DNA of 64,000 nucleotides from Desulfomicrobiaceae bacterium (lineage in GTDB: Bacteria; Desulfobacterota; Desulfovibrionia; Desulfovibrionales; Desulfomicrobiaceae): assembly GCA_041685265.1 (NCBI GenBank), contig JAWLGC010000005.1:178-64177 (forward strand). Reading direction: 5' to 3'. The notes under the pieces were generated by a model, which was not told where the DNA came from, searched no databases, and saw nothing but the letters and a program-made list of their open reading frames with translations. Of this stretch, positions 1,893-25,107 are shown piece after piece. The stretch's first letter is position 1, and each line of letters begins with the position of its first letter. The translations under genes were made by a program, and so were the position numbers.

Positions 1893-2029
1893 ATGCTTCG
1901 ACTACCTCTGGGGCGTCATCTAAAGGAAGTTATCCGGTCGCCTCGGGTCCGCACAGACCATCGCATCTCCACCGGATACACCGCATTTGACAAACCTTGA
2001 TCATGACACCCACCACAGGAGAAGACAGG

Positions 2030-3505
2030 ATGAAACACGTTCACGCTACGACCGCAGGAACCCTGCTCAAGGCCATTTTCGGCCTGCTGCTGGCCCTGAT
2101 GATTTCCCTGCCCGCTTACGCAGGCCAGGCCAAGTACGTTTTCATGTTCATCGGCGACGGCATGGGCATCCCCCAGCGTACCGCTGCGGCACAGTATACT
2201 GAAAAAGAGCTGCTCATGGATACCTTCCCGGCCCAGGGGGTGACCTCCACCTTTGCCGCCGACCGGTTCATTACCGGCTCCGCCGCTTCCGCCACCGCGC
2301 TGGCCTCCGGACAGAAGACCAACATCAACATGCTCGGCATGACTCCGGACATGCAGCCCCTGAAGACCATGGCCGAACTGGCCAAAGAAAAGGGAATGAA
2401 GGTCGGAATCGTCTCCAGCGTGTCCATCGACCACGCCACTCCCGCCGCCTTCTACTCCCACGTCAAACACCGAAGCCAGTATTATGATGTGGACGTGGCC
2501 CTGGCCGAAAGCGGGTTCGACTATTTCGGCGGCGGCGGTCTCAAGGACCCCACCAACAAAAAAGGAAACTCCGAAAATTTCAAGGGAGATGCCCGTGAGC
2601 TGATCAAAAAGGCCGGCTACAAATATGTGACCGACAAGCAGGAATTCCTGGGGCTGACCCCCAAGGACGGCAAGATCCTGGCTGTCAACGCCTGGCTTCA
2701 AGACGGTGGAGCCCTGCCCTACGTCATGGACATGACCGAAAAGGACATCACCCTGCCCGAGTTCACCGCCAAGGGCATCGAACTGCTGGACAACCCCAAA
2801 GGATTCTTCATGATGGTCGAGGGCGGCAAGATCGACTGGGCCTGTCACGCCAACGACGCCACAGCGGCTATTGAAAACACCCTGGCCTTTGACAAGGCCA
2901 TTGCCGAGGCCGTCGAGTTTTACAAAAAGCACCCGGAGGAGACCCTGATCGTGGTCACCGGCGACCACGAGTGCGGCGGTCTGACCCTCGGCTTCGCCGG
3001 AACCAAGTACGCTACAAACTTCGAAATTCTGGGCAAGCAGAAGATCTCCTTTCAGAAATTCACTGACGAAATCATCAAAGACCTCAAGAATTCCGGGAAA
3101 ACTGATCTCGCTTCTGCCAAAAAAATCATCACCGAACAGTTCGGCCTGAAGTTCGAAGGCGACGCCAAGGCCGATCCCATGGTCCTCAAGGCGCATGAAA
3201 TCGTCCAGATCGAGCAGGCTCTGGCCAAATCCATGAAGGGCGAGGAGGAAGGCTCCAAGAACCCCGAAACCTATATCCTGTATGGCGGATACGACCCCCT
3301 GGCCGTCTCCCTGACTCATATTCTTAACCAGAAGGCCGGTCTGGGCTGGACCTCCTACAAGCACACCGGGGTTCCCGTAACCACCGCGGCGATCGGGGTA
3401 AACGCCCTTGAATTCAATGGCTTCTACGACAACACCGATGTAGCAAAAAAAATATTCAAAATCATGGGCTTATCTCAAGAAGCGCCTGTTTTTGCCGCCA
3501 AGTAA
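2030..3505 (+). CDS. phoA: Alkaline phosphatase (PhoA family), secreted
   Basis: ORF 1997..3505. Motifs 'FIGDGMG', active-site 'TGSAASATA', 'DHATPAAF', 'EGGKIDWACHAND', 'VTGDHECGG'. Signal peptide present. Start at MKHV (2030), preceded by GGAG. Confidence 0.93.
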   Translation: MKHVHATTAGTLLKAIFGLLLALMISLPAYAGQAKYVFMFIGDGMGIPQRTAAAQYTEKELLMDTFPAQGVTSTFAADRFITGSAASATALASGQKTNINMLGMTPDMQPLKTMAELAKEKGMKVGIVSSVSIDHATPAAFYSHVKHRSQYYDVDVALAESGFDYFGGGGLKDPTNKKGNSENFKGDARELIKKAGYKYVTDKQEFLGLTPKDGKILAVNAWLQDGGALPYVMDMTEKDITLPEFTAKGIELLDNPKGFFMMVEGGKIDWACHANDATAAIENTLAFDKAIAEAVEFYKKHPEETLIVVTGDHECGGLTLGFAGTKYATNFEILGKQKISFQKFTDEIIKDLKNSGKTDLASAKKIITEQFGLKFEGDAKADPMVLKAHEIVQIEQALAKSMKGEEEGSKNPETYILYGGYDPLAVSLTHILNQKAGLGWTSYKHTGVPVTTAAIGVNALEFNGFYDNTDVAKKIFKIMGLSQEAPVFAAK

Positions 3506-3538
3506 AACCGGCCAGAACAGGTCCTGCTGTTAAAAAAA

Positions 3539-3567
3539 GGCGAAGCCGATACGGCTTCGCCTTTTTT
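3539..3567 (+). terminator. Rho-independent terminator after phoA (A-tract upstream, so potentially bidirectional)
   Basis: GGCGAAGCCG atac GGCTTCGCC followed by TTTTTT, and preceded by AAAAAAA. Confidence 0.85.
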
Positions 3568-3606
3568 CTACACCTTTCGTAATTATTCACCTCGGATAAA
3601 AAATAA

Positions 3607-3725
3607 GGGATTTAGGGAGTAGAAGGATAAATGGGATTACGGTCAAAGGCCGGATAGTCCTGTAACCCTGCGACACAGGAGCATACTCCTCTTAATCCCG
3701 GAACGGGTACCTGAATAGTTACCAC
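3607..3725 (+). other. Conserved noncoding element, copy A (candidate cis-regulatory RNA or operator region), 26 nt upstream of the YibE/F start
   Basis: 3658..3699 (TCCTGTAACCCTGCGACACAGGAGCATACTCCTCTTAATCCC) matches 29284..29325 at 37 of 42 positions, including a 17-nt identical core. The GGGAG motif lies exactly 43 nt upstream of the core in both copies. Flanks show weaker similarity. Confidence 0.55.
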
Positions 3726-3750
3726 CTTTCAAAATGGAGCGAGATTTTCC

Positions 3751-4908
3751 ATGCCTCGATTCGCACTCAAAAACATCCACTCCGACGGAATTCTGGCCAT
3801 GGTCTTCATCGTTTTGAGCTTCGTTCTTGTGCAACTTCCTTCAGGTTTCGACGATCGCATCGACCAGGATGCAATCCGCTGCAAGGGCACTATTATGGAA
3901 GTTGACGACTCCCAGATTCAACAGCTCGGGATGATTTTTACCGGCGACCAGGGGGTGGTGGTAAAAATCGAGGACGGTCCTTTCGAAGGTCGAATTCTCG
4001 AGGCGTCCAACCCGCTTCTGGGACAGATGGACAGGGATAAAATTTTCAAGCCAGGCGACATAGCCCTCATTGTCCTGACCGTAACCGACGACGAAATCGT
4101 ATACGTCAACCCCCAGGAACACTACCGCATCGACCTGGAGTTGCTTCTGCTCGGTCTATTCGTTCTGGCACTGACCTTGTTCGGCGGATGGACCGGCGTC
4201 AAAGCATTGGTCTCCTTCGGATTTTCCGCCGTGTGCATGTGGAAGGTGCTAATCCCTCTCATCCTCCTGGGATGGGCTGCCATTCCCGTGGCCCTGGGCG
4301 TCGTCACCCTGCTTACCGCAACCGTCATCTTTCTCGTGGCCGGTCTGAGTCGGAAAGGCTTCACCGCCTTTGCAGGCGCCATGCTGGGAGTACTCACCAG
4401 TTGCGTCCTGTCCGTAATCTTTACCAGAGCCTTTCATGTCCACGGGGCGATCATGCCCTTTGCCGAAACTCTGCTCTACTCCGGATTCGGGCACCTGAAC
4501 CTGACCGACATCTACTGCGCAGCCGTGTTTCTGGCAGCCTCGGGCGCAGTTATGGATCTGGCCATGGACGTGGCCGCGAGCATGGATGAAGTGGTCAGCA
4601 AAAAACCGGGAATCACCCGGCTCGAAGCGCTGCGATCCGGGCTGAGCGTGGGCAGAGTGGTCGTCGGCACAATGACAACCACCCTGCTCTTTGCCTATTC
4701 CGGTGGGTACATCACCCTGCTCATGGCCTTCATGGCCCAGGGGATCCCGCTGGTGAACGTTGCCAACCTGATCTACGTGGCTGCGGAAGTACTCAAAACC
4801 CTGGTCGGCAGCTTCGGTCTGGTCATGGTCGCCCCGTTCACCGCCCTGGTCGGGGCGATCATCCTGGTCCCCTCCGGAGACCGGAGGCAGGTCGCCCGGG
4901 AAGAATAA
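3751..4908 (+). CDS. YibE/F-family integral membrane protein
   Basis: 385-aa ORF with an N-terminal soluble beta-rich part followed by multiple TM helices. Overall sequence pattern is typical of YibE/F (PF07907-like). Function unknown. Confidence 0.7.
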   Translation: MPRFALKNIHSDGILAMVFIVLSFVLVQLPSGFDDRIDQDAIRCKGTIMEVDDSQIQQLGMIFTGDQGVVVKIEDGPFEGRILEASNPLLGQMDRDKIFKPGDIALIVLTVTDDEIVYVNPQEHYRIDLELLLLGLFVLALTLFGGWTGVKALVSFGFSAVCMWKVLIPLILLGWAAIPVALGVVTLLTATVIFLVAGLSRKGFTAFAGAMLGVLTSCVLSVIFTRAFHVHGAIMPFAETLLYSGFGHLNLTDIYCAAVFLAASGAVMDLAMDVAASMDEVVSKKPGITRLEALRSGLSVGRVVVGTMTTTLLFAYSGGYITLLMAFMAQGIPLVNVANLIYVAAEVLKTLVGSFGLVMVAPFTALVGAIILVPSGDRRQVAREE

Positions 4909-4939
4909 TCACCCGTCAACACATCAGACAGGCTCCGGT

Positions 4940-5479
4940 TCAACGACGGCGCTTCCACCACCAGCCGCAGACGAGCAGAAGGGCGAGCCCCAGCCCGAAC
5001 CCCTGAACCCCCTGCTCCAGAGATTCCACACCAAGGGCGGCCCCGGCAACCACGCCGAGCCCGGTCACCAGAATCGCCCACACCAGGGCGGTAAGCAGGC
5101 TCATTACCAGAAAAAACAGAGGCCCGACCTCAGTCATTCCCAGGGCAAAAAGAACCGCCCCCCGGGTCCCGTACAGAAACCGGTACCCAAGGAGGACCTT
5201 GGTCTTGTTGCGGTGCAGCCAGGACTTCGCCTGCCCCACCCGTCGTCTCAGTCCGGGCAGACGAAAGAGCAATCTGTCTCCCCATACCCGCCCCATCCAG
5301 AAAAAGGCCTGATCCCCGAGTACTGCGCCGACAAAGGCAAACCCGATCACGCCCCAGAAGGAAAGCATTCCCTGCCCCACTGCCAGGCCCGCCACCAGCA
5401 GGACCCCTTCTCCTTCCAGGGCCGTTCCCAGGGCCACGGCCAGATACCCGTAGGTCTCAATCATCATCACGATATCCAT
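4940..5479 (-). CDS. DedA-family (SNARE-associated/VTT domain) membrane protein
   Basis: 179-aa ORF. 'YGYLAVALGTALEGEGVLLVAG...FFWMGRVWGDRL...LLGYRFLYGTRGAVLFALG' fits the DedA pattern. Confidence 0.8.
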   Translation of the reverse strand: MDIVMMIETYGYLAVALGTALEGEGVLLVAGLAVGQGMLSFWGVIGFAFVGAVLGDQAFFWMGRVWGDRLLFRLPGLRRRVGQAKSWLHRNKTKVLLGYRFLYGTRGAVLFALGMTEVGPLFFLVMSLLTALVWAILVTGLGVVAGAALGVESLEQGVQGFGLGLALLLVCGWWWKRRR

Positions 5480-5654
5480 TATCCTCTCCTTGATGCCGAA
5501 TCCCTATCCGTTCCAGGTGACGGGGGTATGACTTTTTTCCATAGGGAAACCATCAAAACTTCACACCGGCTTCATCATCGCGTCACACGAATGTGGTGTT
5601 CTCGCGGACCATATCAACTCCTCCGGGAACGGACGAACCGCCAAGGAGAGCATC

Positions 5655-8126
5655 TTGAAACAACCCGTCGACCTGAACGACTATGCCGAACTCGGGCCGC
5701 CGGCGGCCAAACTGATCAGCCTGCTCGGCCTCGGCTCCCATGGACCTGATTCCCTGGTCGAAGCACTGCCCTTTACCCATGGAGACACCACCGTGGGAAC
5801 GGAAAACGAACTCCAGGTCGCTGTTCTTGGGAGCAGGGAGGACGTGGACCTGCCGGGGACCATTCGTGACTCGGACTATTTCAAGAACGTGCTCAAAAGA
5901 ACGGCCACCGGAGATGCTCCGGCCAACATGCTGGCCGGCCTTGAGAGTTTTCTCGACCACAACCCGGAACAGGTCTGGGAGAACAGCTGGGTCCGGTTCC
6001 CCAGGCGGACCCTGACCCGTTCGGCGGACGCCCTTCTCGAACAGGACCTGCAGGCCGACAAGAGCGAACCCGAAAGTCCGAGGCGCAGCGATTACAAAAC
6101 CTTTCTCATTTCCTCGAACGGGGAAAATTACGTACGCATCCCCATAAGTTATCTTCTCAAGCTGGCTCTAGCGGACATGATAGGAGCCGAAACGGTTCCG
6201 GATGCCGTCAAGGCGCTCGGAGAACGGTTTCTGGCCCACTTCCTGAGCGACAACACCTCCCCGGAGACCTTTTCCTTCTACCCGGCGCCCGGCGGCCGAG
6301 TCGGCATTGGAAACGCCGCAGCCAGAGAAACTGCCCAACGGTTTCTCCTGTGTCAGATCCTGGTTTCCTGGGCCAACACCAAATTCGAACTCAACGCCCA
6401 CGGCCAGCATGCCATAGTCTACTTCGCGCCCAATGCTCCTGTCCGGCAAAAAGAACTGAACACCCTGATTCCGGACTCCTTCTACCGCAGGCTTTTCATG
6501 TCGCCCTGTCTTTCGGGGTGGGACCGGGGCGAAGAAAAGCATGCCTATATGGGACTGTGCCACCGGGTCCTGTCCCGAAGCCAGCTGAATACCATCGCCA
6601 AGCTCAAGGAGGCGGGCATCATCACCAGCAACCTGGTCACCCTGCCCAACACCTCCAACACCTGCCTGGCAAACAACGGAACCCACATCAGCCTGGGGAG
6701 CAGCAGACTGACCCGACTGCACAAGAACCGTGGGTCCGGGTTTGGGCCGGCCGAAGAAAAACACCTCGGAGACCTGAGCATCAAAATCATCGAGCATTTC
6801 CTGCCCCTGTTTGCCGGCACGTATTCCGCGGCCCCGTACCGAATGGACTTTCAGGATTTTCATCCGGAAAAGGCACTGGGATTTCTCCCCCACGAACTGG
6901 ATTTCACCCACCTGCGCATGATCTGGAGACGGTGGAAAAAAAAGGCGTCCCTGAACCTGTTCGGCCATCGCCTGACCCCTTTTGGTCCCGAAATTCTGGA
7001 CAAGACCCTGAGCAGGGTATTGGGACTCAAGGGAGATTTCATACCCGATTTCAGGCTCATCGACTACCTGACCACCCTCATGAGCACCTATCAGAGTCCG
7101 GCTCTGGACGGCACCCTGCACAACGACGATCGCCTCAAGCAGGACCTGACAGATATGGGCGTATTTCACTCCTCCATGTCCACCTATCTGCTCTACAAAT
7201 TGCGCAGATTCGAAACCATGGGGTTTTCCGGGTTCGAGGGGCGGTACTACAGTCAGTTTCCATCCCTTGTCAGGGACATGGTCCCGGCCGTTGAGCTGCA
7301 GAACCTGCTTTCCGCTCTCGCCTACAAATACCTGCTCACCGGACAGATCACCCACAGGGACATCCCCGACGACCCCACCATTGAAAGTGAGCGGCGCCAG
7401 ATCTTTTTCGGCTCCGCCCTGGGTATTCCCACTTTCTATGTCTGGAAACGAACGAAAAACAAATTTCTGCGCCGGATTCTCAAGAAAACGGATCGGATCC
7501 GGAGCAGTCGTCGATACAAGGGGTATTTCCGGATCTACAACCGGGAATACCGCACCGCTCTGATTCGGCTCATCCGGGAAGACGGCGCGGATCTGGTGGA
7601 AAATCTGGGCATGGGCACAACTCTCCAGGACCTGAAACACCGCCTCGCACATCCGGAGGCTCAGGCCTCGGGCAGATTGACTGCAGCCATTATGGACCGG
7701 ACCGGGGCCGGGCACCCCCTGAAGCTCAACGGGGAACAATTCAACGCTGCCGCGGAACATTACTATCGAAACGACCTGCGCAAAACATACCTTAAAGAGG
7801 CCATGCAGTTCTTCCTTGAGGATTGCAAAACCGTGGAGGCTTTCGGATGTCTGCCGGAAAAGTTTTGCCATACCGGGCTGCACCGGTTGCTCGAAGGAGC
7901 AAACATCGTCGAGTATATCAGCCGCATCAGAGGCGACATGGTCGAAGACCGTCTCCCGCTGGCCGAGCTTGAAAAGACCGGGCACCTGCTGCTTCTGGTC
8001 ATCGGCATGCACCTGAACAATTCCATCAAACCAAGCCACAAGGAACACGCCAATGCGTCAACCACTCCGGCACCAGTACATCTCCCGGACCAGTTCCTCT
8101 CCCCGGACCGAGCCTCTGTTCTGTGA
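5655..8126 (+). CDS. Large conserved-looking hypothetical protein (823 aa), no family recognised
   Basis: Long uninterrupted ORF with normal amino-acid composition. TTG start 6 nt after AAGGAGAG. No TM segments and no motif I can assign. 'NNGTHISLGS' is only weakly reminiscent of the GS/carboxylate-amine-ligase 'GxHxHxS' motif. Confidence 0.75.
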   Translation: MKQPVDLNDYAELGPPAAKLISLLGLGSHGPDSLVEALPFTHGDTTVGTENELQVAVLGSREDVDLPGTIRDSDYFKNVLKRTATGDAPANMLAGLESFLDHNPEQVWENSWVRFPRRTLTRSADALLEQDLQADKSEPESPRRSDYKTFLISSNGENYVRIPISYLLKLALADMIGAETVPDAVKALGERFLAHFLSDNTSPETFSFYPAPGGRVGIGNAAARETAQRFLLCQILVSWANTKFELNAHGQHAIVYFAPNAPVRQKELNTLIPDSFYRRLFMSPCLSGWDRGEEKHAYMGLCHRVLSRSQLNTIAKLKEAGIITSNLVTLPNTSNTCLANNGTHISLGSSRLTRLHKNRGSGFGPAEEKHLGDLSIKIIEHFLPLFAGTYSAAPYRMDFQDFHPEKALGFLPHELDFTHLRMIWRRWKKKASLNLFGHRLTPFGPEILDKTLSRVLGLKGDFIPDFRLIDYLTTLMSTYQSPALDGTLHNDDRLKQDLTDMGVFHSSMSTYLLYKLRRFETMGFSGFEGRYYSQFPSLVRDMVPAVELQNLLSALAYKYLLTGQITHRDIPDDPTIESERRQIFFGSALGIPTFYVWKRTKNKFLRRILKKTDRIRSSRRYKGYFRIYNREYRTALIRLIREDGADLVENLGMGTTLQDLKHRLAHPEAQASGRLTAAIMDRTGAGHPLKLNGEQFNAAAEHYYRNDLRKTYLKEAMQFFLEDCKTVEAFGCLPEKFCHTGLHRLLEGANIVEYISRIRGDMVEDRLPLAELEKTGHLLLLVIGMHLNNSIKPSHKEHANASTTPAPVHLPDQFLSPDRASVL

Positions 8127-9072
8127 CCGAATCATCTCCTATCTCTATTCCAGGGTGCGGGAAAACTGCCCGGCCATGTTCAGGGCCGTGACCTCGGCAC
8201 GGACCTCCTCGCTGCTCGGATTTCTGAACTACGATCTTCCCCTGGGAGGAAGGCTGACCGGAGGGGAGCGCCTGATGCGCACCATGGGCATCGATCTGGA
8301 AGAATGCGTGCTCCCGGCCCGGTCCTACACCACCCCCAGGGCCGTCTTCGAACGCCAGATCCGGTACTGGGAAAAACGTCCCATGCCCGAATCCGTAAAA
8401 AGCGTGGTCTCCCCGGCCGATTCCCGCATGCTGGTCGGCTCTCTGGCCCGGGAATCCCACCTGTTTCTCAAGGACAAATTCTTTTCCTATGAGGAACTGC
8501 TCGGGACCCGGCACCGGAAATGGATCGAGCGGTTCTCCTGTGGTGATTTCGCTGTTTTTCGGCTCACACCCGAAAAATACCACCACAACCATGTTCCGGT
8601 CACCGGAAAGGTGGTGGACATCTACACCATCGACGGGGCCTTCCACTCCTGCAACCCGTCCGCGGTCATCGCCGAATGCACCCCGTTTTCCAAAAACAGA
8701 CGGGTTGTGACCATACTTGATACAGACATCCCCGGCGGTACCGGATGCGGGCTGGTGGCCATGGTCGAAGTGGTGGCCCTGATGATCGGACAGATCGTGC
8801 AGTGCTACAGTGAAACGGGTTACGAAAACCCGCTGGATGTCCGGCCTCAGATGATCCTGCGCAAGGGGCAGCCCAAAAGTCTGTACCGCCCCGGCAGTTC
8901 CCTGGACATTCTCTTTTTCGAACCCGGCCGCATCACCTTTTCCCCGGACCTTGTGTCCAACCAGCACCGGCTCGATGTGGAAAGCCGATTCTCCCGTTTC
9001 TTCGAACAACCCATGGTGGAAACCGACATCCAGGTCCGGGCCGAAATCGCCACGGTCAGCGGACCCGCCTGA
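8053..9072 (+). CDS. Phosphatidylserine decarboxylase-family (pyruvoyl-dependent) decarboxylase
   Basis: 'VVSPADSRMLVG', 'FRLTPEKYHHNHVPVTGKV', 'NRRVVTILD...LVAMVEVVALMIGQIV', and 'PGSSLDILFF' at the position of the LGST self-cleavage site. The ATG at 8053 has AAGGAA 8 nt upstream and overlaps the previous ORF by 74 nt. An alternative start is at 8176. Confidence 0.8.
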   Translation: MRQPLRHQYISRTSSSPRTEPLFCDRIISYLYSRVRENCPAMFRAVTSARTSSLLGFLNYDLPLGGRLTGGERLMRTMGIDLEECVLPARSYTTPRAVFERQIRYWEKRPMPESVKSVVSPADSRMLVGSLARESHLFLKDKFFSYEELLGTRHRKWIERFSCGDFAVFRLTPEKYHHNHVPVTGKVVDIYTIDGAFHSCNPSAVIAECTPFSKNRRVVTILDTDIPGGTGCGLVAMVEVVALMIGQIVQCYSETGYENPLDVRPQMILRKGQPKSLYRPGSSLDILFFEPGRITFSPDLVSNQHRLDVESRFSRFFEQPMVETDIQVRAEIATVSGPA

Positions 9073-9116
9073 GTTTTCGCCGTCCACAACAACCATCCGG
9101 CAACGAGTGCAATGCT

Positions 9117-10160
9117 ATGATCAATACCGTATTCATTCTCGTTATGACCCTGGCCCTGACCGGGATGATTTACCTGGGATTCTGGATTCTGCCCGCAGAG
9201 CGGTGGCAGATGTTCGGGGCCATCCCGTTACGCAAGAACAGCAACGGAACCTGGCAGGGACTGAACATCACCTGGTACGGGATACTGAACGGGCTCAGCT
9301 ACACTCTGGCAACGGCCCTGGTTCTCCTGCTGCTCGGCAGCATCCGCCTTCCCCTGACCGTGACCCTGTTTCTGGTCTTCGCCGTGCTCGGCCTGTGCAT
9401 TCCGGCCTCGAGTATCGTGGCCCGTATCGTCGAAAAGAAAAAACACACCTTCAGCGTGGGTGGAGCAGCCTTCGTGGGCATCCTGGCCACCCCCTGGATC
9501 GCCCTGGTCTCCATTCGTCTTCTGGCACCGCCCGATACCGCGGTCATGCCCGTACTGGCCGCCATCAGCATCGCCTACGCCCTGGGGGAGGGGACCGGAC
9601 GTCTGGCCTGCATCAGCTTCGGCTGCTGCTACGGTCGGGCCGTGCAGGATCTGCCGAAAAAATGGCAATCCCTGTTCTCCTCATTTCACCTCGTGTTTCA
9701 AGGCAAGACCAGAAAAATCGCCTATGCCGACAACCTGGACAACACCCCGGTGGTCCCCATTCAGATCATCACTTCCGCCCTGTACTGCTCAGCCGCACTG
9801 CTCGGCCTGATTCTGTTTCTCGGCTCGCATTTCACGACCGCTTTTCTGCTGACCCTGATGGTCACCCAGGGATGGCGGTTTCTTTCCGAATTCCTCCGGG
9901 CTGACTACCGAGGAGGCGGCAACACCTCCGCGTACCAGAAAATGGGTCTCATATCCATGGGCTATGGGCTGATCCCAGCCATATTCCTCGCCAACGGACC
10001 GGCTACGACCCCGAACCTCGCAGCCGGATTCGGACTGCTCTGGACCCCCGGGACCATCCTGTTCCTGCAGGGACTTTTTGTTCTGACCTCATTATACACC
10101 GGCCGCAGCGAGGTGACCGGTTCCACATTAGACTTTTACGTTGAACAGTCCCGGGTCTGA
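9117..10160 (+). CDS. Prolipoprotein diacylglyceryl transferase (Lgt)-family polytopic membrane protein
   Basis: 347-aa multi-TM ORF. 'GEGTGRLACISFGCCYGR' resembles the GRxGCxxxGCCYG motif of an Lgt subfamily. 'FLSEFLRADYRG' is also Lgt-like. Confidence 0.6.
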   Translation: MINTVFILVMTLALTGMIYLGFWILPAERWQMFGAIPLRKNSNGTWQGLNITWYGILNGLSYTLATALVLLLLGSIRLPLTVTLFLVFAVLGLCIPASSIVARIVEKKKHTFSVGGAAFVGILATPWIALVSIRLLAPPDTAVMPVLAAISIAYALGEGTGRLACISFGCCYGRAVQDLPKKWQSLFSSFHLVFQGKTRKIAYADNLDNTPVVPIQIITSALYCSAALLGLILFLGSHFTTAFLLTLMVTQGWRFLSEFLRADYRGGGNTSAYQKMGLISMGYGLIPAIFLANGPATTPNLAAGFGLLWTPGTILFLQGLFVLTSLYTGRSEVTGSTLDFYVEQSRV

Positions 10161-10184
10161 CCCCTTCCCTCCATACCATCTTCA

Positions 10185-10212
10185 GGGGCGACCCGCTGGT
10201 CGTCCCTCTTTT
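10185..10212 (+). terminator. Rho-independent terminator closing the 5655..10160 operon
   Basis: GGGGCGACC cgct GGTCGTCCC (9 bp including one G-T) followed by TCTTTT. Confidence 0.65.
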
Positions 10213-10315
10213 GATGGTTACCCGCCACAAAACCTCCTTGTCCACGTCCCCGGGCTGTCACATTCGCGCCGTAATATACAGGGATTGTCATCCATCTTTC
10301 ACCAAGTGGACCCTC

Positions 10316-12361
10316 ATGCCCCCTTTGCGCGCTTTCTTCCCGGCTCTTTTCACAGGCTCCCTTCTTCTGCCGCACCCGGCCCGTTCTCAAGCCGAACATC
10401 TCGACGCAGAAATCGCCGGCCTGGTCCACCCCACAAGATCCATCGGTGACGGGTTGATCACATACCTTTCCCAGGCCGGGACAGAAGTGATCATTCTGGC
10501 CATTTTCACCATCCTGACCCTGATCGCCCTGATCCGAACCCAGATTCTGCGCAACAGAATCTCCGCCCGATCTCAGGAGCTTCAACTGGCCAACAAGGCC
10601 CTCGAGGCAGAGATCCGGGGCAGGCGCCGGGTCCAGCAGGACCTCGACCTGGAGCGAGCCTACTTCTCCCAGCTGTTTGCCAATTCCCCCCAGGCTATCA
10701 TACTCATCGGCCGGGACGGGGCCATTGTGGATCTGAATGCAGGATTTGAAAAACTCTTCGGGGTAAGCAAAGAGGATCTGGCCCACGGGTTCGACTGGAA
10801 AAAGCTGATCCCGGGGGAGTATGTCCAGGAAGCGATCTCCATCCGCAAAACAATTCTAGGCGGAAAACCGCTTATCCGGGAAACGGTTCGGGTTCATAAG
10901 CAGGGGTATCCCATTCCGGTCTGTATGACCGGATACCCGGTCCTGCTCCAGGGCAGAATCGAGGCCATATTCTACATCTACTCCGACATCTCCGAACGAA
11001 AATCATTTGAAGAACAACTCGTCACCCGGGCCTGCTACGACACCCTGACCGGACTGCCCAACCGGAGTCTGTTCCTGGACCGCCTGAACCGGGCCATCGT
11101 CCGCAGAAAACAAAACCAGAATCCATCCTTTGCCGTACTCATGCTCGACCTGGACAGATTCAAAAGGGTCAACGACAGCCTGGGCCACCAGGCAGGGGAT
11201 GCCCTGCTTGCCGAAATCGGATCCCGCCTGCAACGCTGCGTACGGTCCATGGATACCGTTGCCCGGTTCGGGGGGGACGAATTCGCGATTCTGCTCGAAG
11301 ACCTCTCCACGGTCCGGGAGATCCTGCCGGTGATCGAACGCATCCAACGCATCATGGATCGTTCCTGCCGGATCGCGAATCGACACATTCATACGAGCAC
11401 CAGCATCGGGGTCGTTCTCGACGGTTCGCGTTATGACACGGCCGACCCCATGCTTCGGGATGCCGATATCGCCATGTACCGGGCCAAAGATCGCGGCCCG
11501 GGAAAGTTCAAGATCTTCAATCAACGGATGCACGTCCGGGCCGAAGAAAGCCTGTATATGGAAAATGCCCTGCGCCAGGCAATGGGTACAGCCCAAATCT
11601 CCCTGCATTACCAGCCCATCGTATCCGTAAGCGATGCCTCCATCATCGGATTCGAGGCACTGCTTCGATGGAACCATCCCGAAATCGGCCGGATTGCACC
11701 GGACAGGTTCATCCCTCTGGCCGAAGAAACAGGACTGATAATCCAGCTTGGTCAATGGGTTCTGCACGAGGCATGTACAATGCTCGCCAGGTGGCGATCC
11801 ATGCCGGGTAACGACAGCCTGACCATGAGCGTAAACCTCTCCACCCGCCAGCTGGAACAAAAAGACCTGGTCCCCTTTATTTCACGTCTGCTGTCGACGC
11901 ACGATCTTCCCGGGTCCGCCCTTAAACTGGAGATCACCGAAAACCTGCTCATGCAGAACAGCCGTGTCTGCCTGGAAAAACTCCAGGAATTAAAAAAACT
12001 CGAACTGGACCTGGCTGTGGACGATTTCGGCACCGGGTACTCATCACTGAGCTACCTGCAGCAGTTTCCCGTTGATCAACTGAAGATCGACAGATCTTTT
12101 GTGAGCGGACAATCCGCAACAACCAAAGGACGGGAGATTGTCCGGGCCATCATCGACATGGCCAGACATCTGAAACTCAAGGTAGTGGCCGAAGGCGTGG
12201 AGGAACAGGACCAGCTCATCAGGTTGCGCGACCAGGGGTGCGATCACGCCCAGGGCTATTTCTTTTCCCGCCCCCTGTGTCAGGAGAAGGCGGAAGGACT
12301 TCTGTGCACCCCCGGAGATCACCAGTCCGGGCCCGCCGATCTCGTCGCCCCGCACGGATGA
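10316..12361 (+). CDS. Membrane-anchored PAS-GGDEF-EAL c-di-GMP turnover protein
   Basis: ORF 10211..12361. 'GGDEFAILL', 'FEALLRW', 'DDFGTGYSSL', 'KIDRSF', a TM segment and a coiled coil. Start placed at MPPLRAFF (signal-like); the start is uncertain. Confidence 0.88.
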   Translation: MPPLRAFFPALFTGSLLLPHPARSQAEHLDAEIAGLVHPTRSIGDGLITYLSQAGTEVIILAIFTILTLIALIRTQILRNRISARSQELQLANKALEAEIRGRRRVQQDLDLERAYFSQLFANSPQAIILIGRDGAIVDLNAGFEKLFGVSKEDLAHGFDWKKLIPGEYVQEAISIRKTILGGKPLIRETVRVHKQGYPIPVCMTGYPVLLQGRIEAIFYIYSDISERKSFEEQLVTRACYDTLTGLPNRSLFLDRLNRAIVRRKQNQNPSFAVLMLDLDRFKRVNDSLGHQAGDALLAEIGSRLQRCVRSMDTVARFGGDEFAILLEDLSTVREILPVIERIQRIMDRSCRIANRHIHTSTSIGVVLDGSRYDTADPMLRDADIAMYRAKDRGPGKFKIFNQRMHVRAEESLYMENALRQAMGTAQISLHYQPIVSVSDASIIGFEALLRWNHPEIGRIAPDRFIPLAEETGLIIQLGQWVLHEACTMLARWRSMPGNDSLTMSVNLSTRQLEQKDLVPFISRLLSTHDLPGSALKLEITENLLMQNSRVCLEKLQELKKLELDLAVDDFGTGYSSLSYLQQFPVDQLKIDRSFVSGQSATTKGREIVRAIIDMARHLKLKVVAEGVEEQDQLIRLRDQGCDHAQGYFFSRPLCQEKAEGLLCTPGDHQSGPADLVAPHG

Positions 12362-12379: not shown

Positions 12380-12419
12380 CTGTCACAAGACTTCTACCCC
12401 CCTGTCACACTCCTGTAAC
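12380..12419 (+). promoter_or_regulatory. Tandem Pho boxes of the pst promoter
   Basis: CTGTCAC aaga CTTCTAC cccc CTGTCAC actc CTGTAAC, i.e. 7-bp repeats with 4-bp spacers. A TATACT -10-like hexamer at 12432..12437 follows 12 nt later. The pstS ATG is at 12487. Confidence 0.8.
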
Positions 12420-12486
12420 ATTTCATACCTATATACTTGCGTATCGAAAGGCACATTGCTTACAACAACTCTATTTGGAGGAAATT

Positions 12487-13296
12487 ATGAAAAAAGGACT
12501 TCTTCTCTCTCTGGCCCTTCTGCTGGCCATGACCTCTGCCGCCTGGGCCAAATCCCTGCAGATCAAAGGCTCCACCACAGTTCTGCCCATCGCCCAGAAA
12601 GCTGCTGAAGCGTACATGAAGGAATACCCCGAGGTCTCCATCTCCCTTTCCGGCGGCGGATCGAGCAACGGCATCAAGGCCCTCATCGACGGGACCACCG
12701 ACATCGCCGACGCCTCCCGGTTCATCAAGGGCAAGGAAGTCAAAAAGGCCGTTGAGAACGGCAACTACCCCGTGCCCTTCGCAGTCGCCTATGACGCCAT
12801 CGTGCCCATCGTGCACCCCTCCAACCCGGTCGAAAACCTGACCACCGCCCAGCTCAAAGACATCTACATGGGCAAGATCACCAACTGGAAGGACGTAGGC
12901 GGTAATGACATGCGCATCGTGGTCATCTCCCGTGACTCCTCCTCCGGTACCTTCGAAACCTGGGAAGGAAAAGTCATGGACAAGGAACGCGTGTTCCCCG
13001 CTGCTCAGTTGGTCGCTTCCGCCGGCGCAGTCGACCAGGCCGTGGCCAAAAACAAGTACGCAATCGGCTACAACGGCATCGGCTACCTGAACGACTCCAT
13101 CAAGGGCCTGACCGTCAACGGCGTCGAGGGTACCAACGAAACCGCCCTGAGCGGCGAGTTCCCCATTTCCCGGCCCCTGTTCATGTTCACCAACGGCTGG
13201 CCCAAGGGCGAAACCGCTAAATTCATCCAGTACGTTCTGAACCCCAACAAGGGCCAGAAGGCTGTTGCTGAATCCGGTTACGTTCCCCTGTACTAG
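12487..13296 (+). CDS. pstS: Phosphate ABC transporter substrate-binding protein
   Basis: MKKGLLL signal peptide after GGAGG. 'IKGSTTVLPIAQKAAEAY', 'SGGGSSNGIKALIDGTTDIADASR'. Part of ORF 12238..13296. Confidence 0.92.
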   Translation: MKKGLLLSLALLLAMTSAAWAKSLQIKGSTTVLPIAQKAAEAYMKEYPEVSISLSGGGSSNGIKALIDGTTDIADASRFIKGKEVKKAVENGNYPVPFAVAYDAIVPIVHPSNPVENLTTAQLKDIYMGKITNWKDVGGNDMRIVVISRDSSSGTFETWEGKVMDKERVFPAAQLVASAGAVDQAVAKNKYAIGYNGIGYLNDSIKGLTVNGVEGTNETALSGEFPISRPLFMFTNGWPKGETAKFIQYVLNPNKGQKAVAESGYVPLY

Positions 13297-13340
13297 TCTC
13301 CGGGTGATACCCGTCCGGTAGAAGAGCACAACCACACAGA

Positions 13341-13375
13341 GGGACCGGTCGAAGCACACCCCTTCGGCCGGTCCC
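13341..13375 (+). other. Intercistronic stem-loop between pstS and pstC (possible partial terminator or mRNA stabiliser)
   Basis: GGGACCGGTCGAAG cacaccc CTTCGGCCGGTCCC (14 bp, one mismatch) with only a weak T tract (TTCTC). Confidence 0.5.
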
Positions 13376-13437
13376 TTCTCATGGATCAACCCCAGCCGGC
13401 ACCGGACTGCCTCCAGCCCGATGCCACGGATCACGCC

Positions 13438-14331
13438 ATGACCAACTCGCGCCAGAAAAAAGAAAAACTCATTCACTTCGGCTTCTTTTCATTGGCCTCG
13501 ATTTCCATCCTGATCCTGGCCATGATCATGGTCTTTCTCTTTTCCCAGGGAGTGCCCATCTTCGAGCATGTCAGTGTGATGGACTTTCTGTTCGGAAACT
13601 ACTGGTATCCCACGTCCGAACCGCCGAACTTCGGAATCTTTCCCCTGCTGATGGCCTCTCTGGCGGTCACCGCCCTGTCCTCGGCCATCGCCATCCCTCT
13701 CGGGGTCATGACCGCCATCTACCTGGCCGAGATCGCCTCGCCCCGAATGCGCAATTTCACCAAACCCCTGGTGGAACTTCTGGCCGCCCTGCCCTCCGTG
13801 GTTATCGGCTTTTTCGGGATGGTCATCGTGGCCCCGTTTCTTCTTGAGACCCTGGACCTGTACTCCGGGCTGAACCTGTTCAATGCCTCGCTCATGCTCG
13901 CGTTCATGTCCGTACCGACCATCTGCTCCATCTCCGAAGATGCCATCTACTCGGTCCCGGAAGAACTGCGCGAAGCCTCGCTGGGGCTCGGGGCCACGCA
14001 CTGGCAGACCATCTGCAGGGTGGTCATTCCGGCCTCCCTGTCCGGGATCTCCACGGCCATTATCCTGGGCATGTCCCGGGCCATCGGAGAAACCATGGTC
14101 GTGCTCATGGTCGCAGGCGGCGCAGGCCTGATCCCCTCGTCCATTTTTGATCCGGTCCGGCCCATGCCGGCCAGTATCGCCGCGGAAATGGCCGAAGCGC
14201 CCTTTCACAGCGAACACTACTACGCCCTGTTCGGCATCGGTCTGGTGCTGTTCATCTTCACCTTTCTGTTCAACCTGGTGGCAGATTACATCGCCAACAA
14301 GCACTCCCAGGTCGGCGCAGCCACCCTGTAG
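13438..14331 (+). CDS. pstC: Phosphate ABC transporter permease
   Basis: ORF 13381..14331. Multi-TM with the EAA-like loop 'EELREASLGLGATHWQT'. Start at MTNSRQ chosen; 13381 is also possible. Confidence 0.9.
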   Translation: MTNSRQKKEKLIHFGFFSLASISILILAMIMVFLFSQGVPIFEHVSVMDFLFGNYWYPTSEPPNFGIFPLLMASLAVTALSSAIAIPLGVMTAIYLAEIASPRMRNFTKPLVELLAALPSVVIGFFGMVIVAPFLLETLDLYSGLNLFNASLMLAFMSVPTICSISEDAIYSVPEELREASLGLGATHWQTICRVVIPASLSGISTAIILGMSRAIGETMVVLMVAGGAGLIPSSIFDPVRPMPASIAAEMAEAPFHSEHYYALFGIGLVLFIFTFLFNLVADYIANKHSQVGAATL

Positions 14332-14354
14332 CGACCGGACGGATCGAGGAATAC

Positions 14355-15221
14355 ATGCTATCCACCACATCCACGCAGCGTAAAGTCATCCAGACCATGA
14401 TGTTCACCCTGCTCAGGGGAGCCGTGCTCATCAACGGTCTGGCCCTGGCCATCATCGTCTTTTTTTTGCTCAAGAACGGCATCGGGGCAATCAGCTGGGA
14501 ATTTCTGACCGCCAAACCGTATGATTCCATGACCAAGGGCGGAATTTTCCCCTGCATCGTGGGCACCCTGATCCTCGGTGTCGGATCCATGCTCGTGGCC
14601 TTTCCCCTCGGGGTGGCCTCGGCCATCTATCTGCAGGAATACGCCCGGCCCGGAAAAACCGTGCGTATCATCCGCCTCGGCATCAACAACCTGGCCGGAG
14701 TCCCGTCCGTTGTCTTCGGGCTGTTCGGTCTGGCCTTTTTTGTGACCTGGTGCGGATTCGGAGTATCCATACTGTCCGGAATACTGACCCTCGGCTTTCT
14801 GACCCTTCCGGTCATCATCGGTACAGCCGAGGAATCCCTCCGGTCCGTTCCCCAGACATATCGGGAAGCCTCGCTGGGACTCGGGGCGACCAAGTGGCAG
14901 ACCATATCCAGGGTCGTGCTGCCGACTGCTTTGCCCGGCATGCTCACCGGTTCAATTCTCGGCCTGTCCAGAGCCGCCGGGGAGACTGCAGCCATCATGT
15001 TCACCGCCTCTGTATTTTTCTCTCCGAAAATGCCGACTTCCATTTTTAGTGATGTAATGGCACTTCCGTATCATATTTATGTCCTGGCCACGGCCGGAAC
15101 CGACATCGAAGAGACTCGGCCGCTGCAATACGGAACAGCCCTGGTGCTCATCACCCTGGTCTTCGGGATGAACCTGCTGGCCATCTGGTACCGGGCCCGG
15201 ATTCAGAAAAAAAGACGTTAA
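14355..15221 (+). CDS. pstA: Phosphate ABC transporter permease
   Basis: 288-aa multi-TM ORF. 'YREASLGLGATKWQTISRVVLP'. Paralogous to pstC. Confidence 0.9.
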   Translation: MLSTTSTQRKVIQTMMFTLLRGAVLINGLALAIIVFFLLKNGIGAISWEFLTAKPYDSMTKGGIFPCIVGTLILGVGSMLVAFPLGVASAIYLQEYARPGKTVRIIRLGINNLAGVPSVVFGLFGLAFFVTWCGFGVSILSGILTLGFLTLPVIIGTAEESLRSVPQTYREASLGLGATKWQTISRVVLPTALPGMLTGSILGLSRAAGETAAIMFTASVFFSPKMPTSIFSDVMALPYHIYVLATAGTDIEETRPLQYGTALVLITLVFGMNLLAIWYRARIQKKRR

Positions 15222-15238
15222 CCACAACCAAGACACAC

Positions 15239-15916
15239 ATGAAACGTATCCTTGTCATCGAAGACGAACCCGATATCGCCGACCTGCTCGCGTTCAACCT
15301 GAAGGCCGAAGGATTTACCCCTCTCGTGGCCCGAGAGGGAGAGAAAGGGCTGAAGATGGCGCTGAACGAAAAACCGGATCTCATTCTGCTGGACCTCATG
15401 CTTCCCGGAATCAGCGGCACGGACCTGTGCAAACAGATCAAGGGCAATCCCGGGAGCAACCATATTCCGATCATCATGCTTACGGCCAAGAGTGAAGAAA
15501 TAGACCGCATACTCGGCTTCGAACTCGGTGCGGATGACTATGTGCTCAAACCCTTCAGCCCGCGGGAACTCCTTCTGCGTATCAAAGCCGTGCTGAAACG
15601 AAGCTCCGGAGCCACACCGGCCCTGAAGCAGTGGGAAAAGGAGGGCCTGCTGGCCGATTTCGACTCCTATACCCTGACCGTGGACGGGGAGGACGCACAT
15701 CTGACTCCAACGGAATTCAATCTGTTCGCCGAATTCGTCAAAAACCAGGGCAAGGTCCTCAGCCGGGAAAAACTGCTCGTCAATGCCTGGGGGTACGACT
15801 ACGAAGGGTACAGCAGAACCGTGGACACCCATATCAGACGGCTGCGCAAAAAACTCGGACCGTATTCCCCGCTGCTGGAAACCGTCCGCGGTATCGGCTA
15901 CCGCCTCAAGGCGTAA
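15239..15916 (+). CDS. phoB: OmpR-family response regulator (PhoB)
   Basis: Receiver domain 'ILVIEDE...DLILLDLMLPG...PIIMLTAK' plus a winged helix 'LTPTEFNLF...VDTHIRRLRKKL'. Embedded in the pst operon. Confidence 0.88.
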   Translation: MKRILVIEDEPDIADLLAFNLKAEGFTPLVAREGEKGLKMALNEKPDLILLDLMLPGISGTDLCKQIKGNPGSNHIPIIMLTAKSEEIDRILGFELGADDYVLKPFSPRELLLRIKAVLKRSSGATPALKQWEKEGLLADFDSYTLTVDGEDAHLTPTEFNLFAEFVKNQGKVLSREKLLVNAWGYDYEGYSRTVDTHIRRLRKKLGPYSPLLETVRGIGYRLKA

Positions 15917-15959
15917 CAGGCACCTCACCCGTACAATATACCTGTAAAAGGAGCGGGAC

Positions 15960-17759: not shown

Positions 17760-17795
17760 CCACCCCACCAAACGTCAGCAACCCATGAGACGCAT

Positions 17796-18557
17796 ATGAT
17801 TCAGGACATCAAGATTTCTTCACAGCATCTCGATTTTTACTATTCCGACTTCCACGCCCTGCACGACATCACCATGGACTTCTATGTCAATCAGGCCACG
17901 GCCCTCATCGGACCTTCCGGATGCGGAAAATCAACCTTTCTGCGCTGCATCAACCGCATGAACGACCTCATCCCCGGCACCCGGGTGGAAGGGGCCCTTG
18001 TTCTGGACGGCAGCAACATCTACGATCCCGGGGTGGACGTCGTTGAACTGCGCCGAAGTGTGGGAATGGTTTTTCAAAAGCCCAACCCGTTTCCAAAAAC
18101 CATTTTCGAGAATGTCGCCTACGGGCTGCGGGTCAACGGGGTCACGGACAAGGAATACATCGCCGAACGGGTGGAGGAGAGCATCAAGCTTTCCGCCCTG
18201 TGGACAGAGGTCAAAGACAGACTGCACCAGTCCGCACTCGGACTGTCCGGCGGGCAGCAGCAACGGTTATGCATCGCCCGGGCCCTGGCCGTTGAGCCCG
18301 AAGTGCTGCTCATGGATGAGCCGGCCTCTGCCCTTGATCCCATCGCCACCCAGAAGATCGAAGAACTGATTCACGAGCTCAAAAAGCAGTTCACCATCGT
18401 CATCGTCACCCACTCGATGCAGCAGGCTGCCCGTGTTTCAGACCGAACCGCTTTTTTCTACATGGGCAAGCTGATCGAGGTCGGACAGACAGACAAGGTT
18501 TTCACCCGTCCGGAACAGAAACAGACCGAGGACTACATTACCGGCAGATTCGGTTAA
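17796..18557 (+). CDS. pstB: Phosphate ABC transporter ATP-binding protein
   Basis: Walker A 'GPSGCGKST', signature 'LSGGQQQRL', Walker B '[11 protein letters not shown]', and a typical PstB C-terminus '[10 protein letters not shown]'. Confidence 0.95.
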
Positions 18558-18624
18558 ACGTACACCAGGGAAGTCCCCCTGTTTCAGATCCGATCATACT
18601 TTTTTTCATAACGAGGTAACAACA

Positions 18625-20338: not shown

Positions 20339-20432
20339 CTTTTCATTCCGTTTGAACATCCCTTCCTTTTCGGATACCCTCCACCGCATACAGTCCATTT
20401 CCCCGCTCCGACCGATTCCCTCAGGAGGCCCC

Positions 20433-22751: not shown

Positions 22752-23022
22752 ATCTGATCTGGCCCCTCACCATCTTCGGCTTTCTGCTTGGCGGCATAAT
22801 CTGCGCGCTGCTGTTCCTGGTCGCCCGCCGCAACGGACGAAAAAAGTGATCACGGAAAGAATACTCCCATGATTCCGGTGTCAAAATATCCCTATTGACT
22901 TTCGAGTTGCCCATGTCTAGGTGGGCGCCTCACCAATCGGAAATCGCAGGGAGCGGATCGGCCGCGACCCGCTCCCGACCTGATTGCCGGCGAATCGGAC
23001 TGCTCCCCATGGAGGATAGTGC

Positions 23023-24942: not shown

Positions 24943-25107
24943 TCGAGACCCTGTGGATTAAACGGATTAAAACGGGAGTATCGGGGACGGCATTCTCTTG
25001 TCGGAGCGCGGATGCCGCGCCGCATCCCGATACCCCCCCATGATCCCGTTGCGTACAATCCCTGACAACAACCAATCCAAGCCCCTTCTTCACCGGAGGA
25101 AAGCATC

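Follow-up and report, generated by a model that had tools for sequence, protein, structure and literature searches.

A conserved three-gene operon associated with phosphate-starvation genes is a candidate pathway for a thioether-linked aminolipid

Replacement of phospholipids by phosphorus-free lipids is a major microbial answer to phosphorus scarcity, and the known routes lead to glycolipids, ornithine lipids, betaine lipids and sulfolipids. Desulfovibrio alaskensis G20, for example, uses both Agt and OlsF and produces glycolipids and ornithine lipids only; its Agt-type GT4 glycosyltransferase makes glycolipids under phosphate limitation (PMC5193443). In Desulfatibacillum alkenivorans PF2803T, phosphate limitation reduces the phospholipid share from about 90% to less than 10%, and the limited cells contain about 65% sulfur-containing aminolipids and about 20% glucuronosyl glycerolipids (Ding et al., PNAS 2024, PMC11181052). 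Lipids tentatively named N-butyramide cysteine glycerols (BACys) appear in this organism under phosphate limitation only, occur with diacyl, acyl/ether and diether cores and give a head-group fragment of m/z 205.064 (C7H13O3N2S+), and the tandem mass spectra (MS2) were taken to show an intact cysteine together with a C4 amide (PMC11181052). No BACys genes are named in the main text of that paper. Here, we describe an operon of three genes in a 64,000-nucleotide stretch of DNA (the window) from a Desulfomicrobiaceae bacterium (contig JAWLGC010000005.1), encoding an 823-residue protein, a homologue of the phosphatidylserine decarboxylase PSD and a homologue of the lipoprotein diacylglyceryl transferase Lgt. 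We propose, with a probability of roughly 60%, that this trio is a phosphate-starvation module that makes a thioether aminolipid of the BACys type. Full-text literature searches on the gene combination, on BACys genes and on Geobacter under phosphate limitation returned nothing that assigns the genes of the trio.

The described phosphate-starvation systems, namely the PlcP-Agt glycolipids, the OlsBA/OlsF ornithine lipids, the BtaAB betaine lipids and sulfoquinovosyl diacylglycerol (SQDG), put phosphorus-free lipids in the place of phospholipids under Pho control, as the trio would, and Agt-like GT4 and phospholipase C genes are often neighbours of the trio. Its enzyme families and product class are entirely different from theirs. 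The route proposed here would also be a direct head-group swap on a phospholipid that leaves a thioether, whereas the known systems proceed via free diacylglycerol or by N-acylation. Lipid remodelling under phosphate starvation is not itself a new kind of response; what would be new is that diverged members of three known folds carry it out.

The link to BACys begins with the producer. The genome of D. alkenivorans DSM 16219, which we take to be the type strain PF2803T in which the lipids were found, carries an intact trio (locus L033; proteins of 827, 344 and 358 residues), and the phosphate limitation that elicits BACys is matched by the Pho-gene setting of the trio in many genomes. The window comes from a different species, and the proteins of the two are about 55% identical. 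For the fragment formula C7H13N2O3S+ the calculated m/z is 205.0641 (reported, 205.064), and a head group of composition C7H14N2O3S corresponds to gamma-glutamylcysteine minus CO2, with the fragment formula also minus the thiol hydrogen. Since isomers are not resolved by composition, we regard this match as consistency only. A fragment that keeps all three oxygens would, we infer, fit cleavage at the S-C bond. Such a head group requires an amide that joins a C4/C5 amino acid to cysteine, a bond between cysteine and glycerol and the loss of one CO2 beside a free amine, which matches the enzyme types of the trio: a ligase, an Lgt-type transferase and a pyruvoyl decarboxylase. To our knowledge, Lgt is the only enzyme family that forms a glyceryl-S-cysteine thioether. 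The glucuronosyl lipids produced together with BACys fit the GT4 glycosyltransferase gene that neighbours the trio, described below; glycolipids of this sort are products of the Agt-type enzyme of D. alaskensis G20 (PMC5193443). An earlier, sequence-only reading of this DNA had proposed that the operon could build or remodel an unusual amino-acid-derived lipid head group, and our analysis supports that proposal and makes it more specific.

In the mechanism that we propose, the module would turn phospholipid already present into a BACys-type glycerolipid that contains sulfur and nitrogen and is free of phosphorus. In an ATP-dependent step, the 823-residue enzyme would form an amide between the gamma-carboxyl of glutamate and the amino group of cysteine, which may be either free or already lipid-bound. 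On the cytoplasmic face, the Lgt homologue would move the diacyl- or dialkylglyceryl group of phosphatidylglycerol onto the cysteine thiol, forming the thioether and freeing glycerol phosphate, whose phosphate would then be open to salvage by phosphatase. The PSD homologue, as a pyruvoyl enzyme, would strip the alpha-carboxyl that lies beside the free amine, so that the gamma-glutamyl group becomes 4-aminobutanoyl, the "butyramide" of the name. The final lipid would then be S-(diradylglyceryl)-N-(4-aminobutanoyl)cysteine, with the head group C7H14N2O3S. The steps could follow an order other than ligase, Lgt homologue, PSD homologue. For the narrower claim that the trio is the complete BACys pathway, consisting of a topology-inverted Lgt, a ligase of the glutamate-cysteine ligase (GCL) fold and a PSD-fold gamma-glutamyl decarboxylase, we consider the chances to be even.

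Lipid remodelling in response to phosphate starvation, with a different head group or by a different route, is unlikely but deserves to be taken seriously. For example, S-diacylglyceryl-cysteine closely resembles phosphatidylserine, the native substrate of PSD, as established chemistry makes plain, and could be decarboxylated to S-diacylglyceryl-cysteamine, a phosphate-free mimic of phosphatidylethanolamine, before the ligase adds glutamate or another acid. The gamma-glutamyl-cysteamine so formed has the same formula, C7H14N2O3S, and the evidence from folds, genomic context and synteny fixes neither the order of steps nor the substrates. The published reading of the MS2 data, an intact cysteine plus a C4 amide, better fits decarboxylation on the glutamyl side (PMC11181052), and it therefore favours the gamma-glutamylcysteine route over the cysteamine route. 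Alternatively, the ligase and the decarboxylase could act on phosphatidylserine or phosphatidylethanolamine; a phospholipid product would save no phosphorus, which makes the Pho context harder to explain.

The product of the first gene had been called an orphan, which is incorrect: at E<=1e-3 it has at least 2894 homologues, and the family is present in at least 576 species-representative genomes. A HMMER search of 1.8 billion representative sequences recovered 738 clusters at 50% identity, all of the same tight family, and revealed no bridge to a named family. From Geobacter to Desulfobacterales the members are about 55% identical and share dozens of invariant charged residues. The 823-residue protein gave no sequence match in Pfam, NCBIfam or the PDB (phmmer), a profile of 41 members found nothing meaningful in the PDB by hmmsearch, and a Pfam scan of 41 members gave no match even at E<=10. 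When the family profile was aligned by hhalign with the single sequences of E. coli GshA and YbdK, the result was not significant; the only segment aligned, 17 residues of YbdK (EHFLPLFAGTYSAAPYR in our protein against SRFVPHFIALSAASPYM in YbdK), is suggestive.

Profile searches, which the sequence-only reading had suggested for placing the protein, brought nothing; structure prediction followed by Foldseek, which it had also suggested, pointed to the GCL fold. A first AlphaFold model, built at full length from 41 sequences, had a pLDDT of 71.6 and gave only non-significant Foldseek matches, among which five weak matches in the PDB were ligases of the glutamine synthetase fold and PafA also appeared. 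A second AlphaFold 2 model, of residues 31-700 and built from 139 sequences, reached a pLDDT of 95.1 and a pTM of 0.94. Its 16 best Foldseek matches in the PDB were all glutamate-cysteine ligases (GCL, GshF and YbdK), followed by glutamine synthetases; the best was GshF 3ln7 (E 2.7e-3, probability 1.00), and the others included GshF 3ln6, Francisella GshA 3nzt, E. coli gamma-GCS, yeast GCL and YbdK (TM 0.52). The E-values are modest, yet the matches agree in direction, and this ranking speaks for the earlier suggestion, made from a faint motif resemblance to glutamine synthetases, of an ATP-dependent carboxylate-amine ligase.

Motif inspection provides a correspondence at the level of residues. 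A GxExE motif, a GxH motif, the LPLFxGxYSAAPY motif (the "SAxSPY" helix) and an ExR motif follow one another in the order known from GshA and YbdK, and within the family they hardly vary. The first reads GTE50NE52LQV in the 823-residue protein, GLE27RE29TLRV in GshA and GIE17LE19MQV in YbdK; the second GTH344, GVH150 and GQH134; and the last FE528GR530, IE328VR330 and VE243VR245, respectively. The metal-ligand and ExR motifs lie on predicted strands and are conserved in at least 90% of members. In E. coli GshA, residues E27, E29, E67, H150 and E328 are said to have been identified as Mg2+ ligands by Hibi and colleagues in 2004. The counterpart of E67 is uncertain, with E109 as a candidate. H344 belongs to the NNGTHISLGS segment on which the earlier suggestion had been built, and this histidine aligns with the metal-binding His motif of both GshA and YbdK. 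We conclude from the model and the motifs that the 823-residue protein has the fold and active site of a GCL-type carboxylate-amine ligase. Its sequence places it outside the GshA and GCS2 families, with which it shares the fold alone, and because no family sequence profile (Pfam Glu_cys_ligase or GCS2, NCBIfam gshA) matches we have not filed it under either. Like GshA, GshF, yeast GCL and YbdK/GCS2, it combines this fold and motif order with a proposed ATP-dependent formation of a Glu-Cys amide. It differs from them in its length (823 residues against 370-520), its large insertions, its C-terminal helical region of about 180 residues and the linkage of its gene to PSD- and Lgt-like genes.

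A GCL-like fold does not by itself make a ligase, and the protein could instead be an amidase, a depupylase-like hydrolase or a regulatory pseudo-enzyme, in which case the module might modify the cysteine of a peptide or protein. The superfamily of glutamine synthetase, GCL and PafA includes the hydrolase Dop, PafA had appeared as a weak match to the first model, and the native acceptor of Lgt is a protein cysteine. We consider this reading highly improbable: the metal-ligand and ExR motifs typical of ligases are invariant, the high-confidence model matches GCL enzymes and not PafA or Dop, and clustering of neighbouring genes revealed no candidate substrate-peptide gene conserved beside the trio.

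The second protein belongs to the PSD family. It matches PF02666 (PS_Dcarbxylase) at 6e-38, with 130.9 bits against a Pfam cut-off of 22, and falls below all seven NCBIfam equivalog cut-offs for PSD, the best model, NF001941, giving 117 bits against a required 371. Among structures in the PDB it matches E. coli PSD (E 1.6e-9) and, weakly, the PsiD-like tryptophan decarboxylase (2.5e-3). Residues D123, H180 and G281-S, equivalent to D90, H147 and G253-S254 of the E. coli enzyme, are invariant in 63 homologues. This invariance of the Asp-His-Ser triad and the Gly-Ser cleavage site bears out the description of the protein as a self-processing pyruvoyl decarboxylase, and self-cleavage to the pyruvoyl enzyme is therefore to be expected of it. 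The protein also has a conserved N-terminal extension of about 75 residues with an HQYxxR motif, and on its sequence it is a distinct subfamily. In common with E. coli Psd (PDB 7cnw and 6l06) and PsiD (9jer), it would remove an alpha-carboxyl beside a free amine through a pyruvoyl Schiff base. Unlike Psd, it has the cleavage motif PGS(S/T) instead of LGST, and in the place of phosphatidylserine it would act on a thioether lipid with a gamma-glutamyl (or cysteinyl) group.

The third protein belongs to the Lgt family. It matches PF01790 at 2.5e-10 (40.5 bits against a Pfam cut-off of 24.9) and scores 29.6 bits with TIGR00544, for which the cut-off is 118.9. Across 54 homologues, the equivalents of Lgt residues Y26, G104, G142, R143, G154, R239 and E243 are invariant. 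In work by Pailler (2012) and Mao (2016), R143 and R239, as phosphate-binding residues, and Y26, G154 and E243 are said to be important in E. coli Lgt. At the positions of N146 and E151 the family has invariant cysteines, and at that of H103 valine or isoleucine, all of them conserved; H103, D129 and Y235 are lost. The Lgt signature GRxGNFxNxExxG is rewritten to GRLACISFGCCYG, and an extra N-terminal helix and a C-terminal extension are present. Judged by these residues, the protein is not a canonical Lgt. It retains Pfam homology to E. coli Lgt (b2828) and would retain its chemistry, in which a cysteine thiol receives the diacylglyceryl group of phosphatidylglycerol and glycerol phosphate is freed, the proposed acceptor being a small molecule or lipid and not an exported protein. 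Four cysteines, C94, C165, C170 and C171, are invariant in the 54 sequences, two of them being those that replace N146 and E151. These could form a metal site or a site that activates a thiolate, which would fit an active site located on the cytoplasmic side.

Such a location is predicted from the distribution of charge. The mean number of lysines and arginines per loop is 2.9, 3.0, 7.7 and 4.0 in the even loops and 0.15, 0.31, 0.07 and 0.11 in the odd ones. In total, the loops whose counterparts in E. coli Lgt are periplasmic, the catalytic ones among them, carry about 17.5 lysines and arginines, against 0.6 in the others. E. coli Lgt has seven transmembrane helices, an N-terminus on the outside and an active site that faces the periplasm. 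In this enzyme, the lysine- and arginine-rich loops RRANR, RRTKR and RKPR are cytoplasmic; their counterparts in the trio protein are deleted or uncharged. By the positive-inside rule, the active site should therefore face the cytoplasm, in a topology that is predicted to be inverted relative to that of Lgt. The cytoplasmic side is also where the ligase, the PSD-type enzyme and free cysteine would be found.

These features bear on the alternative that the genes are an ordinary housekeeping psd for phosphatidylethanolamine and an ordinary lgt for lipoprotein maturation beside an unrelated conserved protein. The Pfam families are indeed PS_Dcarbxylase and LGT, and the 64-kb window contains no second psd or lgt, an absence that is uninformative for the rest of the genome. 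Both proteins score far under the equivalog cut-offs, the substitution of N146 and E151 by invariant cysteine and the loss of H103 and Y235 are not those of Lgt, and the charge distribution contradicts a periplasm-facing topology. Strict linkage to a GCL-fold protein and a Pho context are, moreover, not features of housekeeping psd or lgt genes. We regard this as the least probable of all the explanations considered.

The linkage is indeed strict. Of the 68 loci whose sequence extends at least 2.4 kb downstream, 64 have the genes for ligase, decarboxylase and transferase adjacent and in the same order, and 67 have the PSD homologue adjacent to the ligase; three of the exceptions are interrupted by insertions, and in one no transferase gene lies within 8 kb. 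The order is kept even for the most divergent homologue, at 34% identity. Conserved synteny in related genomes, on which the sequence-only reading had made its proposal depend, is thus observed in 64 of 68. The best 80 loci come mainly from Desulfobacterota that reduce sulfate or metals (Desulfomicrobium, Desulfobacterales, Geobacteraceae and other Desulfuromonadales, Syntrophobacterales and Syntrophales), and further carriers among them are Ca. Brocadia, a Blastocatellia metagenome-assembled genome (MAG) and SAR324. We also considered a defence system or mobile element and rejected it: PADLOC and PHROGs gave no match for any of the three proteins, the context is chromosomal and the distribution looks vertical.

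In the window, the trio is flanked by an alkaline phosphatase gene on one side and by pstS-pstC-pstA-phoB-phoR-pstB-phoU on the other; pstC and pstA were named from the Pfam matches of their counterparts in a relative (locus L003) and from clustering with a Pfam-checked PstC/A gene. This setting recurs. We counted neighbours within 8 kb at the 52 loci with at least 14 kb of sequence, after clustering of open reading frames and annotation of representatives. A Pho-specific gene (Pst, PhoU, PhoH, alkaline phosphatase or Ppk) is present at 22 of the 52 loci, and at 34 when PhoR/PhoB-like pairs are counted as well; a Pho-specific gene, a GT4 glycosyltransferase of about 815 residues or a Zn-dependent phospholipase C is present at 36. 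PhoR-like kinases recur at 21 loci and PhoB-like regulators at 17, together with PstB, PstS, PhoU, PstC/A, alkaline phosphatase, Ppk1 and PIN-PhoH.

The lipid-related neighbours are of several kinds. The GT4 glycosyltransferase is encoded near the trio at 20 loci (for example, L029 2920-5367, L002 3761-6253 and L075 4951-7449), and its gene is not found in the first 26 kb of the window. Its GT4 domain is C-terminal, its N-terminal region of about 430 residues has no Pfam match, and lipid glycosyltransferases are among its best matches in NCBIfam. The protein is a candidate for the enzyme that makes the glucuronosyl lipids when phosphate is scarce. A homologue of Zn-dependent phospholipase C (PF00882) lies near the trio at 11 loci and could feed diacylglycerol into the glycolipid branch; at L041 (12959-13894) and 10 other loci its gene follows a DUF2062 gene on the strand of the trio. 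DUF2062 genes of two clusters stand directly behind the transferase at 17 loci, and MprF-type flippase domains are encoded near the trio at four. In Trichlorobacter thiogenes (L067 7932-17667) the GT4 gene lies inside the operon, where six genes on one strand encode the ligase, the PSD-like protein, a 735-residue protein, the 817-residue GT4 protein, the Lgt-like protein and DUF2062. The family of the 735-residue protein recurs at six loci and has no match in Pfam or NCBIfam.

Cysteine metabolism also adjoins the operon in two genomes. At L090 (11184-14057) and L071 (12586-15473), both Geopsychrobacteraceae-like, the trio and DUF2062 are followed by cysK, a gene of the cystathionine gamma-lyase/synthase family and then pstSCAB-phoU, and the cysK product at L090 matches TIGR01139 with 447 bits, above the equivalog cut-off. 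The presence of cysK and the cystathionine lyase-family gene behind the operon thus links cysteine supply to it.

A soluble product must be weighed against this context. The ligase and the decarboxylase could together make a low-molecular-weight thiol or gamma-glutamyl compound, similar to glutathione, with the Lgt homologue serving a separate function. In support of this idea, the closest structures of the 823-residue protein are ligases of the glutathione pathway, and PSD-fold enzymes can use soluble amino acids, as PsiD does. Against it, a polytopic protein of the Lgt family is kept adjacent in 64 of 68 genomes, the neighbours include lipid glycosyltransferases, a phospholipase C and MprF-type flippase domains, and the association with phosphate starvation is left unexplained. 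We therefore consider a soluble product very unlikely and favour a phosphate-starvation aminolipid of the BACys type.

A putative PhoB-type operator of three tandem 11-bp units lies 64-96 nt upstream of the first gene. For comparison, in the boxes ahead of the alkaline phosphatase gene and pstS an 11-bp unit with the core (C/T)TGTCA(C/T) is repeated four times in tandem; these look textbook and would define the local PhoB operator. The units ahead of the trio share the core (G/T)TCAC, and nowhere else in the window does TCAY recur three times with an 11-bp period. In L003, an 81%-identical relative, the units are kept and their flanks have diverged. Across genomes, this core with an 11-bp period precedes the first gene in 26 of 79 cases and is present in 22 of 196 intergenic regions that served as controls (p=3.8e-5). 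At other spacings the same core was found in only 3-5 of 79, so that the enrichment is confined to the 11-bp period. PhoB control of the operon is therefore likely, as a prediction from these sites. Our literature search found no published data on induction of the trio by phosphate limitation. The strict pattern of three TGTCAC units is met in the window at the pstS site alone. On the DedA gene's own strand, a GTCAT-N6-GTCAC pair is present at 5517-5532.

Several observations weigh against the proposal that the trio makes a BACys-type lipid. The link between the two comes, as we reason it, from one species and a matching elemental composition, and the structure of BACys is itself tentative, having been derived from MS2 only and drawn as "N-butyramide cysteine" (PMC11181052). 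The drawn compound may be an isomer that differs from 4-aminobutanoyl-cysteine, and the cysteamine isomer discussed above shares the formula. In D. alkenivorans, no Pho gene lies within 8 kb of the trio, and the locus shows one Pho-box-like pair only; 16 of the 52 loci are without any phosphate or lipid neighbour; and a position weight matrix made from the pstS and phoA boxes ranks the site upstream of the trio seventh in the window, below the shuffle maximum. For the ligase, the Foldseek E-values are modest, with none <=1e-3 and TM-scores of about 0.3-0.5, and no sequence or profile method that we tried joins the protein to GCL. The Lgt homologue is without equivalents of N146, E151, H103 and Y235, and its donor and chemistry could therefore differ from those of Lgt; the inverted topology predicted for it is read from a single feature, the charge bias.

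The operon is a specific candidate for the BACys pathway. If our proposal is correct, the BACys head group would be a decarboxylated gamma-glutamylcysteine, thioether-linked to glycerol, which is a corrected structure. Three familiar folds would gain new functions, the most striking being that of a cytoplasm-facing Lgt homologue that lipidates a metabolite and not a protein, and a family of proteins of about 800 residues, which has thousands of members and for which neither Pfam nor NCBIfam has a model, would gain a function. The genes could serve as markers of phosphorus stress in anoxic sediments, Geobacter-dominated aquifers and anammox reactors. Carriers of the operon include Geobacter relatives, Desulfobacterales, syntrophs, anammox bacteria and an Acidobacteria MAG, and its presence in a genome could therefore mark a capacity to cope with phosphorus limitation in anoxic environments.

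Table 1. Features of the operon and of its surroundings in the window
Feature	Position	Strand	Remarks
Alkaline phosphatase gene	1997-3505	+	Preceded by four tandem Pho-box units, 1853-1896
YibE/F membrane protein gene	3751-4908		Pfam
DedA-family (VTT domain) membrane protein gene	4940..5479	-	Divergent from the operon; Pfam and NCBIfam
Putative PhoB-type (Pho-box-like) operator	5559..5591	+	Three tandem 11-bp units, CTTCACACCGG CTTCATCATCG CGTCACACGAA
Ribosome-binding site	5643..5650	+	AAGGAGAG; 4 nt ahead of the TTG; identical in relative L003
First gene, 823-aa protein	5655..8126	+	TTG start; open reading frame confirmed
Second gene, PSD-family proenzyme, 339 aa	8053..9072	+	ATG start; PF02666
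Third gene, Lgt-family polytopic membrane protein, 347 aa	9117..10160	+	ATG start; PF01790
Terminator-like hairpin and T-tail closing the operon	10184-10207 (hairpin), through 10217	+	Tail CTTTTG, CTTTTGATGG
pstS, pstC, pstA, phoB-like, phoR-like, pstB, phoU	12488-19296	+	Pho-box units 12380-12423 ahead

The layout of the operon (Table 1) agrees closely with what had been read from the letters. The coordinates of the three co-directional open reading frames match exactly, the ribosome-binding site is found before the TTG start of the first gene, and the motifs quoted from the translations (SPADS, HHNHVPVTG, PGSS, GRLACISFGCCYG and NNGTHISLGS) are all present in them. The 74-nt overlap of the first two genes is real. 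In 63 homologues, H7-Q8-Y9, R12 and E20 at the N-terminus of the PSD-like protein are invariant or nearly so, and this conservation supports the ATG at 8053 as the true start; the overlapped C-terminal tail of the 823-residue protein shows no conservation. The terminator-like hairpin claimed for the end of the operon has 10 pairs, of which 7 are G-C, and is the strongest terminator-like site within 4000-12000. Both neighbours named for the operon, DedA and YibE/F, are upheld by Pfam.

In the window and at L003, L004, L005, L007, L011, L013 and L043, the gene of a DedA homologue precedes the trio by no more than about 300 nt, and the DedA protein is a possible lipid transporter. We speculate that the DedA, DUF2062 and MprF-like neighbours could translocate the product. 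E. coli gshA (L085) also adjoins a DedA gene, yqaA, which may be coincidence.

An alkaline phosphatase gene followed by YibE/F stands beside the trio in three separate lineages (window 1997-4908, L035 13082-15853 and L075 36-2101). We know of no function for YibE/F, and its recurrence beside alkaline phosphatase and the trio points to a role in phosphate starvation. A PAS-GGDEF-EAL protein is encoded at 10211-12361, between the operon and pstS, and GGDEF/EAL proteins are encoded near the trio at nine loci. Downstream of the Pho island, at 20352-26295, the window encodes a 799-residue GAF-PtsP-type PEP phosphotransferase, an arginine decarboxylase and a saccharopine dehydrogenase-like protein (polyamine synthesis).

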